A DNA stretch of 64,000 bases, taken from assembly GCA_910583945.1 (NCBI GenBank), contig CAJTYF010000003.1:3466-67465 (forward strand), written 5' to 3'. The position numbers were made by a program. Shown piece by piece: positions 54,001-57,000 of the stretch; positions within the stretch are counted from its first letter, which is position 1, and each line of letters opens with the position of its first letter. The stretch is from an uncultured Bacilli bacterium (GTDB lineage Bacteria > Bacillota_I > Bacilli_A > RF39 > UBA660).

Positions 54001-57000
54001 GAGGATTGGCATCAATAATGGCATTCCCATGCTTTTCAGCACGCATTCCAAAACCATCTAAAATAATTGTTAATATTTTTTTCATATTCTCACCGTTTAT
54101 TTTATTATACGCTTAAGCTTAATAAAACACAAATTATTGCTTTTTTGTACGTTCTAATCTTTCTATTTTAGAATATTTCTCTTCTAATATTTCCATACAA
54201 TAGTCTACATATTCTAAAGATTGCTCTTTGCTTCTCCAAGTGACATATCCATTATAAGTTCCAAATATATTTTGGTAATCGAAATGGGATTCATCATAAT
54301 TATAAAGTTGAAAAAATGATTTTATAAGATAGGCGGCTGCTTCCGCATTTTTATACGGATTATATTGAATGTCTTCTGTTGTAAAACCAAGCACTTGGTT
54401 TATGAGTTTATGATTTGTAATATTAATTTGAAAAAGTCCATAATCGTTTGTAGGTGATATGACTCCATTCGTGGCCCATGTTCCATCTGATTCAACGTGA
54501 CCTATTGTAAATAAAATATCATGAGAGAAACCATATTTTTCACTAATATCAAACATGAATTGTTGAAACGTTTCATCATAGATAGGAATATCATAGTACT
54601 CTTGTTTAGGTTCATAGGTTAAATAATTGATTTCATATTTAGGAAGATTTCCATTAATTTTTTCAATTTTGCTTGATTCAGTATGTACTTCTAATGCATT
54701 CCAATAATTTAATTTTATTAAAAAAATAGCACTTAGACTTGCATACAAAGTTAATCTTGTTTTTGTTATATTTCTTTTGGCTTTCATGGTTTCACTTCCT
54801 AATCTTTCATTATTTAATAGACCGACGTTCTAAATGGTACTATAATTTAGTTTTTTTGTCAAATTATACATATAAGATAAAACTGCTTTTCAAAAATGAA
54901 AGCAGTTCATCTTAACCGATTAAGAATCTTGGACGTACACCTACTCCTTGACTATAAGACGCAGCAACATATTCTCCATCTGAAATACCTGTAGCATTAA
55001 CATATGCAAACCTTGTTGAACTCACTACATTTTTTAACCAGTAGTGAAAATTGATTTTTCTATAATTATTAATAAATTCCGGTTTTAGTTGAAAAAGAGC
55101 ATACTGGCGATTATCAATTCCTGTATCGTATAAACTCGACGAACTAACATTTCCACCGTAAACATTCATTTCACTCATCAAATCAACTTTTCTTAAATAC
55201 CATTCCCATCTATCAGATGCCCCTTGAAAAACACCGCCACTTTGATTGATTGCGTTAGGGTTTATTTTAGTTGATAATAAATTCCTATATTCAAAAATAT
55301 GACTCCCAAATGTCTTTCCTATTATTCCATCTGACGAAACTAAGTTTGATAAGGTCTCTGTAACCATTTTACTTCCAGCATATCCACCTTCGGTTGTGTC
55401 CGTATCATTCATGGACGCGTTTATTAAGGGTTCCGCTGGTATTAGCGTTGCATGATGTTTTGTTAATTGCGTATCTCCTGTATACAAATAATTATCAATG
55501 TCTGCGATTAACCATGTCACATCATTTGCTATGATATAATCACCGACATAAAGGTCTTCAAAACTTCCATTACTGATTCTAATATATAAACTTCCATCTG
55601 TATAATAAGGAGTTATATCTTTTCCTCGATAAGTATTTCTATGTAACGCTTTTCCAGCTTCTATATATTTGTTGTATTCTTCTTCACTTAATCCACTTGT
55701 AAACTCGACGTTGCATTTTGATTCACTGCTGACATTGTTTAATACTAAGTTCCAATTGTTATAATCCCATTCCCCAAATGTTCCATTTGTACAATGCACA
55801 TTCGTTTTATATAACCCTCTTTCTGGAATACTTTCACTTTTTTTATCATCTACGACAACACTTAATAATTTAATATCGTAACCAAAATCGGGGATTCTTC
55901 TTTTTAATACATTAAAACTTTTCTTTTCTTCATAAAAGGAATATGTTTTATACAACGTGATACTTCCTATTATTAACAAGATTCCTACGATAAAATAAAT
56001 GATTTTTTTATTCTTTTTGTTTCTGGTAAACCTTTCTAGTTGGTTATTAGTTTCTAATAACCCCATTCTTAAATTTAATCTTTTTCATTTTCTTTTTTCC
56101 TTCCTTATTAAATTTATTTCATAACCAAACAAAGTTCTTTACCTTATTTGTAATTCAATTATAATCAATTTATTCTATTTAAACAAGAAAAAAAAATAAG
56201 TTCTTACACTTATTTAAACTCTTGTTACTTTTTTATTTAAACGTAAACTATCAGCAATGGTTGCAATAAACTCACTATTGGTAGGTTTACTTCTGTCATA
56301 ATCAACACTATGACCAAAGATTTCTTCCATTACCTCGTAATCGCCTCTTGCCCAACTTACTTCAATAGCATGCCTGATTGCCCTTTCAACACGACTTGCT
56401 GTTGTATCAAAACGACTAGCAATTTCTGGATAAATACATTTGGTAATACCACCTATAATATCGGGATTTTGATACATCATGTAAATACTTTCTCTTACAT
56501 ATTGATAACCTCTAATATGAGATGGAATTCCTAAAGAATGTAATAGTTTACTAATGGTTAATTCAATCTTATTATCTCTTTCTTCTACTAAACTCTCATC
56601 GTTATCTGATGGTGCAACAATAGCTAAAATTCTTTTTTCTAAATTTTCTAAGTTCACTGGTTTTATCATAAAGTAATCCACATCAAATTGGTTTACCATT
56701 TTAATTGTTGCTTCTTTTTTGTAGCTTGTTAAAATAATTACTTTCTTTTTGATGTCATTCTTTTCCATTTCTTCTAAGATGTTAATTCCGTCAATTTCTG
56801 GCATAATAATATCCATAATAATCAAATCAAATGTCTCGTGATTATTCAAAACATATTCTAAGCCTTCCTTACCATCATTAATTGTTTTTATTATATTTAT
56901 AACTGCGTGACTACTAAAATACTCCTTTATCTTACTACAGTTTGATGTACTATCATCAATCATAAGAACATTAATATTTTTTTTCATTATTTTCTCCTTC

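Follow-up and report, generated by a model that had tools for sequence, protein, structure and literature searches.

In Bacillus, the central glycolytic genes form the operon cggR-gapA-pgk-tpiA-pgm-eno. The sporulation master regulator gene spo0A is, in Bacillus subtilis, a stand-alone transcription unit whose promoters are controlled by 0A boxes through the Pv/Ps switch. Here we analyze a 64,000-nucleotide (nt) stretch of the genome of an uncultured Bacilli bacterium (contig CAJTYF010000003.1 of assembly GCA_910583945.1; the whole stretch is called the window below) in which spo0A lies between tpiA and gpmI, close to the S10 ribosomal operon. A preliminary description of this DNA had reported that spo0A, a phase-variable surface-protein gene copy, and a lytic transglycosylase gene interrupt the glycolytic cluster; it suggested that insertion of a repeat cassette may have brought spo0A there and named a synteny comparison with related genomes as a check. 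The interruption is real relative to a Bacillus-type gap-pgk-tpiA-gpmI-eno order, and gene identities and coordinates, a single heptamer position excepted, held up in profile searches. The comparison, however, indicates that the position of spo0A is unusual with respect to Bacillus and not within its own lineage. We consider it highly likely that the locus combines four layers of different age: an ancestral synteny, a genus-level insertion, strain-level differences in copy number, and population-level variation of a poly-G tract.

The window order is gap-pgk-tpiA, spo0A, surface-protein paralog, SLT transglycosylase, gpmI; the minus strand holds every gene between 50.5 and 62 kb, and profile searches back the identities of the glycolytic, spo0A, and SLT genes:

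60302-61951, minus strand: udk-like gene with TGS and PRK (uridine-kinase-like) domains, from profile search
59289-60296, minus strand: gap, from profile search
57789-59000, minus strand: pgk, from profile search
57113-57796, minus strand: tpiA (triosephosphate isomerase), 227 amino acids (aa), longest open reading frame (ORF) reaching 57835; PF00121, 1.9e-50
56214-56987, minus strand: spo0A; TIGR02875, 253.6 bits (cutoff 200), and PF08769, 1.6e-40
54912-56066, minus strand: surface-protein paralog, copy 3, 384 aa, without a Pfam match
54134-54787, minus strand: membrane-anchored SLT-domain lytic transglycosylase; PF01464, 35.4 bits (cutoff 21.3)
52580-54085, minus strand: gpmI (cofactor-independent phosphoglycerate mutase); TIGR01307, 568 bits
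51173-52567, minus strand: cadherin-like surface protein, 3' of gpmI

As in the Bacillus-type operon, gap, pgk, and tpiA adjoin one another in the same orientation, with an overlap of pgk and tpiA, here of 8 nt when tpiA starts at 57796, the start called in other assemblies (same-species contigs encode a 227-aa product). Unlike in that operon, cggR is not found upstream of gap in the window, where the TGS/PRK gene stands instead; spo0A separates gpmI from tpiA throughout the clade; and eno does not lie downstream of the window gpmI, which is followed by the cadherin-like gene and then by rpsJ and the S10 operon.

To place this arrangement in time, we aligned 14 Spo0A homologs, used the alignment to scan representative genomes, and located the window proteins in each retrieved locus by tblastn. 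Thirty-eight loci (L007-L044) come from uncultured metagenome-assembled genomes (MAGs) labelled Bacilli, Tenericutes, Mollicutes, or Mycoplasmatota bacterium, with Spo0A 46-74% identical to that of the window; 42 more distant loci (L045-L086) belong mostly to named or MAG Bacillales, Paenibacillaceae, and Clostridia. Among the 38 relatives, 26 have tpiA or pgk immediately 5' of spo0A (tpiA ending <400 nt upstream in 24, pgk likewise in 2), and tpiA is found 0.5-2 kb upstream in a further 9. On the other side, gpmI starts at most 100 nt downstream of spo0A in 12/38 and 1-1.4 kb downstream in 5 more, and rpsJ is often next after gpmI. The paralog was absent from the spo0A site in all 38 of these loci by tblastn, and no glycolysis gene occurred within 8 kb of spo0A in any of the 42 more distant ones. 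Because the adjacency is present in L007-L044 without the paralog and absent from the 42 distant loci, the order tpiA-spo0A-gpmI appears to be ancestral and stable in the clade, not cassette driven. The oldest layer would thus be the conserved order udk-like gene, gap, pgk, tpiA, spo0A, gpmI, and then the S10 ribosomal operon, with spo0A as an old resident between tpiA and gpmI. These relatives, which share a stable gene order with tpiA or pgk next to spo0A in paralog-free loci, refute the proposal that a repeat cassette carried spo0A into the operon. The gene itself has already been recorded in the orders RF39, RFN20, and ML615J-28 (PMC10868615). Our literature searches returned no paper describing a spo0A-tpiA linkage, and the clade-wide tpiA-spo0A-gpmI linkage is new as far as those searches show. 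One related MAG carries a tandem spo0A pair (L037:4428-6009), 50% and 52% identical to the window Spo0A, with a TTCGACA box between the two genes.

Like its B. subtilis counterpart, the window spo0A is preceded by TGTCGAA-type boxes, which would imply autoregulation, and resembles a stand-alone unit. Its upstream region contains the following elements:

57074-57110, minus strand: four GACA/TACA-type repeats at 10-nt spacing, candidate 0A boxes upstream of spo0A
57019-57065, minus strand: predicted core promoter region of spo0A
57059-57065, minus strand: TCTAGTA block at the -35 position, TCTAGTATTTT, invariant in alignment A3
57035-57040, minus strand: TATAAT of spo0A
57019-57030, minus strand: conserved 5'-leader motif TTGCGTGCAGTA, just downstream of the -10 element

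Read from 57110 down to 57074, the array is ATCGACA-caa-TTTTACG-gaa-ATTGACA-taa-CGATACA. Its layout is the same in the nearest relatives (L007-L009) and in a sister species (L091); in L008, for example, it reads TTCGACA-cag-TTAGACA-tat-CTTTACA-taa-GTAGACA, and many relatives have 2-4 tandem boxes 10 nt apart. Within the window the heptamers themselves are no more frequent than chance predicts (TGTCGAT, 3 matches versus 4.4 expected; TGTCGAA, 5 versus 5.6), so only the comparison across genomes is informative. A single exact TTCGACA also occurs at 12285-12291, between a cold-shock-like gene and agrB, within chance expectation. Across genomes, exact TTCGACA, the reverse complement of TGTCGAA, is present on the coding strand within 160 nt upstream of spo0A in 26/38 relatives, against a background of 0.004 per 160 nt in the same loci; in the opposite orientation it is found in that interval in none of the 38. 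The relaxed pattern T[CAT]GACA is upstream of spo0A in 36/38 and TATAAT in 37/38, and the most widely shared upstream 7-mers are TTCGACA, TCGACAA, and GACAAAA. Distances from box to TATAAT are 28, 38, 50, 60, or 70 nt, that is, in steps of about one helical turn. The TGTCGAT heptamer that had been singled out as resembling a 0A box does exist, at 57104-57110 of the plus strand (ATCGACA on the coding strand) instead of 57097-57103. Although not above chance in the window, it is positionally orthologous to the conserved TTCGACA of the relatives.

Phosphorylated Spo0A (Spo0A~P) probably binds these phased, coding-strand boxes, which would give autoregulation as in Bacillus. The architecture differs from that of B. 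subtilis in several respects. Namely, the boxes of this clade all lie on the coding strand in a 10-nt phase, TCTAGTA is invariant at the -35 position, and a sigma-H-type promoter was not recognized upstream of the window gene. The TCTAGTATTTT block, which does not vary among six aligned sequences, lies some 18 nt upstream of TATAAT; neither it nor TTGCGTGCAGTA resembles a sigma-A -35 element or a sigma-H promoter. Rfam at gathering thresholds gave no hits in the whole window, and the conserved leader motif matches no known RNA element. A generic sigma-70 promoter scan of 50.8-62.2 kb returned 62 sites versus 59 expected and is uninformative in DNA of 30% GC. As far as literature searches show, the phased coding-strand 0A-box array is new.

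The protein fits this picture. Its receiver domain (PF00072, 5.9e-21) has D11, D12, D59, S88, and K109, which are invariant in alignment A1, and its C-terminal region is the Spo0A-specific DNA-binding domain (PF08769, 137.7 bits; cutoff 25), which aligns at about 1e-40 with the Bacillus structures 1LQ1, a Spo0A-DNA complex, and 1FC3. The TTASRVERAIRHAIEV helix is identical, so that this orthologous response regulator shares its recognition-helix segment with B. subtilis Spo0A. Given the identical helix, the invariant receiver residues, and the conserved boxes, we infer a functional window Spo0A that has retained the classical DNA specificity and binds the promoter of its own gene. A weak SpoIIM match near a distant homolog of the SLT gene in a related genome (L088:10107-10688; L089:4497-5078) fits the persistence of sporulation genes in the wider group.

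How spo0A might be transcribed in this setting depends on the signals around it, of which the following were found in addition to its own promoter region:

56185-56216, minus strand: terminator-like hairpin plus U9, overlapping the spo0A stop codon; -13.8 kcal/mol, z = -2.5, putative terminator
54881-54907, minus strand: terminator-like hairpin 3' of paralog copy 3; -18.2 kcal/mol, z = -4.5, with 0/200 shuffles as stable
54834-54862, minus strand: promoter-like TTGACA-17-TACCAT upstream of the SLT gene, from promoter scan
54104-54109, minus strand: TATAAT upstream of gpmI

No terminator was seen in the SLT-gpmI spacer (fold z = -0.5), and the tpiA-spo0A spacer of the window has no significant structure; a generic terminator scan of 50.8-62.2 kb missed all the hairpins of interest. 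The likely units, as predicted from these signals, are gap-pgk-tpiA, with possible read-through into spo0A; spo0A; the paralog; and SLT-gpmI-cadherin-like gene. With its TATAAT promoter, 0A-type box array, and terminator-like hairpin, spo0A would form a transcription unit of its own, and since no terminator separates it from tpiA in the window species, some glycolytic read-through is possible.

This raises the alternative that function, and not only descent, holds spo0A in the cluster: cotranscription with gap-pgk-tpiA and/or gpmI would tie the supply of Spo0A to glycolytic expression. The tpiA-spo0A linkage persists down to 46% Spo0A identity, the nearest relatives (L007-L009) resemble the window in having no terminator-like structure in the tpiA-spo0A spacer, and spo0A and gpmI can be as close as 5 nt (L036) or 36 nt (L030 and L035). 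Yet nearly all loci have a conserved promoter and boxes belonging to spo0A itself, and under a strict rule, which scanned the window and the 38 relatives, about 7-9 of the 39 upstream regions, a few of them doubtful, place a hairpin with a T-run between tpiA and the boxes. The strict rule misses imperfect stems that are visible by eye; more relatives than it counts seem to have a terminator after tpiA, and the true fraction is uncertain. In several relatives, spo0A is also followed by a T-run hairpin and then by a separate gpmI promoter of the TGTGnTAnnAT type; the junctions readily accept unrelated genes; and an order conserved beside the S10 operon can persist without function. On balance we regard functional coupling as unlikely. 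The same doubt applies to its lineage-wide form, in which glycolytic read-through would supply basal spo0A transcription and the phased 0A boxes would add autoregulation on top. If it were true, the level of the sporulation master regulator would be hard-wired to glycolytic expression in reduced-genome gut Bacilli that have lost much of the classical sporulation-sensing machinery.

The old order with spo0A as a long-standing resident leaves the paralog and the SLT gene to be explained. In relatives, the gap between spo0A and gpmI holds unrelated genes: an AAA_14/DUF4143 ATPase in L010 and L020 and, by sequence similarity, in L023; a DAG-kinase-like gene in L015; and a 396-aa protein of unknown kind in L007. 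The sister species L091 (Spo0A 96% and gap 94% identical) has tpiA, spo0A, a paralog with G10, SLT, and gpmI, and distant SLT homologs sit elsewhere in their genomes (L088 and L094). Since the sister species shares the order, the distant SLT homologs lie elsewhere, and the junctions of other lineages hold unrelated genes, the paralog and the SLT gene are best read as a genus-level insertion at the spo0A-gpmI junction. Among same-species contigs (L001-L006), one paralog copy occupies the junction in L004 and L005, as in the window, two do in L001, and L002 and L003 have one intact and one frameshifted copy. In this strain-level layer, the paralogs also swap segments by recombination.

In principle, the repeated surface-protein cassette could have driven a recent rearrangement or insertion that placed all three genes, spo0A, paralog, and SLT, between tpiA and gpmI. 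The window does contain five such cassettes, up to 96% identical, and the differing copy number at the junction indicates that recombination at the cassette does occur; the idea thus retains its value for the paralog and the SLT gene, as later insertions. For spo0A it is very improbable, since dozens of divergent genomes show the tpiA-spo0A(-gpmI) adjacency with no paralog there, and in each of them the conserved 0A-box and promoter architecture directly follows tpiA. Least probable of all is that the arrangement or the G-tract differences described below are artefacts of metagenome misassembly at repeated cassettes or of homopolymer sequencing error: contigs do break at the cassette (L087 starts inside one) and homopolymers are error prone, but the same order recurs in six or more independent assemblies of the window species, as well as in one sister species, L004 and the window do not differ over 13,945 nt (100% identity), and G tracts at the same codon position in paralogs across species of a 30% GC genome point to maintenance.

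The SLT protein has the features of Family 1 SLT lytic transglycosylases (PF01464): an above-cutoff domain and, in translation, GHVESDG...YGLFQIN...TYNGY, which includes the VESDG, GLFQI, and YNG motifs, VESDG holding the catalytic Glu-Ser motif. It differs from them in being small, with a single transmembrane anchor, fast evolving, and very narrowly distributed, with only 18 detectable homologs. The SLT protein is 74-85%, the paralog 65%, and the cadherin-like protein 72% identical where gpmI and Spo0A are 96-100% identical; this lower identity relative to the flanking enzymes (for SLT, 74-85% versus 96-99%) indicates that the exposed proteins evolve fast. That the SLT gene belongs to the paralog cassette is ruled out, as the other four copies in the window have no adjoining SLT gene. 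A phage origin of the insert is unsupported, SLT having only weak matches to phage families of unknown function.

The closest described counterparts of the paralog family, as regards its variation, are the poly-G genes of Campylobacter jejuni, which are contingency genes with homopolymeric tracts (PMC8355987, PMC6321876). As in those genes, a long G tract lies in the 5' coding region of multicopy surface-protein genes, with lengths that shift the frame. The family differs in that it occurs in an uncultured gut bacterium of low-GC, Gram-positive type and has no name as a protein family, in that the ATG abuts the tract in most copies and offers a second possible start, and in that copy 3 has lost the tract. 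Five copies are present in the window, the other four and the 5' region of copy 3 being as follows:

10682-11998, minus strand: copy 1, with a G4 5' end and cassette as in copy 3 and an extra frameshift; probably a pseudogene, judging from the reading frame
34969-36153, minus strand: copy 2, intact, 394 aa, with G10 (36121-36130) in frame from the ATG near the Shine-Dalgarno sequence (SD)
62160-64000, minus strand: tandem pair of copy 4 and copy 5, 5' of the udk-like gene; the window end truncates copy 5
56067-56194, minus strand: promoter-like and 5' cassette of copy 3, 96% identical to 11727-11998
Within that cassette, minus strand: TTGTTT (56181-56186), 17-nt spacer, TATAAT (56158-56163), and SD AAGGAAGG (56099-56106)

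Family members share one plan: a promoter-like TTGTTT-17-TATAAT cassette, a strong SD, an ATG followed by 7-8 Lys-rich codons, the G tract, LLETNNQ, a transmembrane helix, and the ectodomain. In most cases AAT stands just before the tract, which creates an adjoining ATG. In copy 4 the tract is G10 (63195-63204), and a frameshift follows codon 298. The G10 tracts of copies 2 and 4 are the only G or C runs in the 64 kb that reach a length of 6 nt; 0.005 runs of at least 9 nt are expected there. Tract length varies from G9 to G11 across L001-L006, L087, and L091. The copy adjoining spo0A has G10 in L001, L003, and L006 and G9 in L002; the second copy has G11 in L001 and G10 in L002 and L003. These changes alter the frame between near-identical sequences: L001 and L002 differ at 11 sites across 4.46 kb, 3 of them homopolymer-length changes, and copy 2 is in frame with G10 in the window and out of frame with G11 in L087, from another sample, where the protein is 100% identical. 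At the population level, G9, G10, or G11 just after the start codon would thus shift the frame by slipped-strand phase variation, and the family shows clear signs of being a poly-G contingency family with predicted ON/OFF expression. Segments also appear to be exchanged between paralogs, since L002 and L003 differ by a dense block of single-nucleotide polymorphisms restricted to the 5' half of one copy. The SD-proximal start of the second copy is ACG in L001 (12460-12470) and ATG in L002 (8724-8734), which would be a second, non-repeat route to silencing. Literature searches on phase variation in RF39-type bacteria returned nothing specific.

Copy 3, the one next to spo0A, departs from this plan. 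It reads ATGGGG, with a tract of only G4 (56061-56064), in place of the long homopolymer of copies 2 and 4; its SD-proximal ATG (56088) opens a 13-codon, out-of-frame upstream ORF ending at 56047-56049, and the long ORF runs from an internal ATG (56066) without an SD. Because the tract has collapsed to G4 and the SD-proximal ATG is out of frame, copy 3 is probably locked in a low or off state and itself no longer switchable. The phase variability ascribed to this copy in the preliminary description therefore suits the family and not copy 3, whereas its promoter cassette is indeed there, with a predicted promoter function. Copies 1 and 3 have the same collapsed ATGGGG and cassettes of about 270 nt, covering promoter and 5' end, that are 96% identical despite lying 44 kb apart, a likeness that suggests recent gene conversion. 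An agr-like quorum-sensing locus (12482-15268) adjoins copy 1, with agrB on the plus strand at 12482-13078 and a GHKL histidine kinase gene at 13279-14553.

None of the 394 homologs of the family is named, and a single DUF6273 match is the only Pfam domain among them; searching Pfam, NCBIfam, and PHROGs with the paralog returned nothing meaningful. The copy 3 protein consists of an N-terminal transmembrane anchor, a beta-sandwich, and a C-type-lectin-like ectodomain, and the C-type-lectin fold was confirmed when tested. Comparators with this fold are a Thomasclavelia ramosa IgA peptidase domain (9qa6), the C-terminal domain of Legionella Lcl (8q4e), and Treponema denticola TvpA (2y3c). Their sequences are only 9-18% identical to the paralog, which has neither a protease domain nor a diversity-generating retroelement and varies instead by paralog recombination and a frame-shifting tract. 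The product is thus a membrane-anchored surface protein of C-type-lectin-like kind, which probably binds a ligand, and a poly-G family of this fold in uncultured gut Bacilli is new as far as literature searches show.

Some observations weigh against parts of this interpretation. No gpmI occurs within 8 kb downstream of spo0A in 21 of the 38 related loci, so that the ancestral order is more certain on its tpiA-spo0A side than downstream of spo0A. The window box ATCGACA matches the consensus at 6 of 7 positions and the neighboring repeats are degenerate, and the promoters, terminators, and Spo0A binding are predictions from sequence. The placement of this lineage of low-GC gut Bacilli in the RF39/RFN20/ML615J-28 group is likewise inferred. 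As for the poly-G family, LLETNNQ is found in 37 of the best 120 homologs, and 31 of these 37 begin with MGGGLL, which corresponds to a G10 tract and an in-frame internal ATG. It may be, then, that G10 does not represent a genuine OFF state; if the internal ATG is used, expression could be high, low, or off instead of simply ON or OFF. Short-read metagenome assemblies can also miscall the length of homopolymers.

In the cadherin-like protein, a signal peptide and a cadherin-like domain are combined with a linker rich in Pro, Thr, Lys, and Asn and with a transmembrane anchor at the C terminus; the gene follows gpmI after 12 nt, and the protein is 72% identical between the sister species, versus 97% for gpmI. 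The gap-pgk spacer (59001-59288) is polymorphic within the species: L001, L002, and L006 carry about 302 bp extra, with a 169-aa ORF without a Pfam match (L001:7450-7959), that the window, L003, and L004 do not have. Farther downstream, rplC (ribosomal protein L3; 49749-50549) encodes a 266-aa protein with a highly acidic, Glu/Thr/Asn-rich C-terminal extension of about 55 residues. Typical L3 proteins have no such extension.

The components of this locus are all of known kinds, and current understanding is not overturned. The variation of the paralogs by poly-G slippage, recombination, and copy-number change suggests strong host, phage, or immune pressure on these commensals. Sequence evidence indicates that Spo0A autoregulation and DNA specificity have been retained in the lineage. 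The position of spo0A is a clade-wide synteny marker and not the product of a recent rearrangement; the tpiA-spo0A(-gpmI) signature, with its defined promoter and 0A-box architecture, can be used for an uncultured gut lineage in which the capacity to form spores is under debate.

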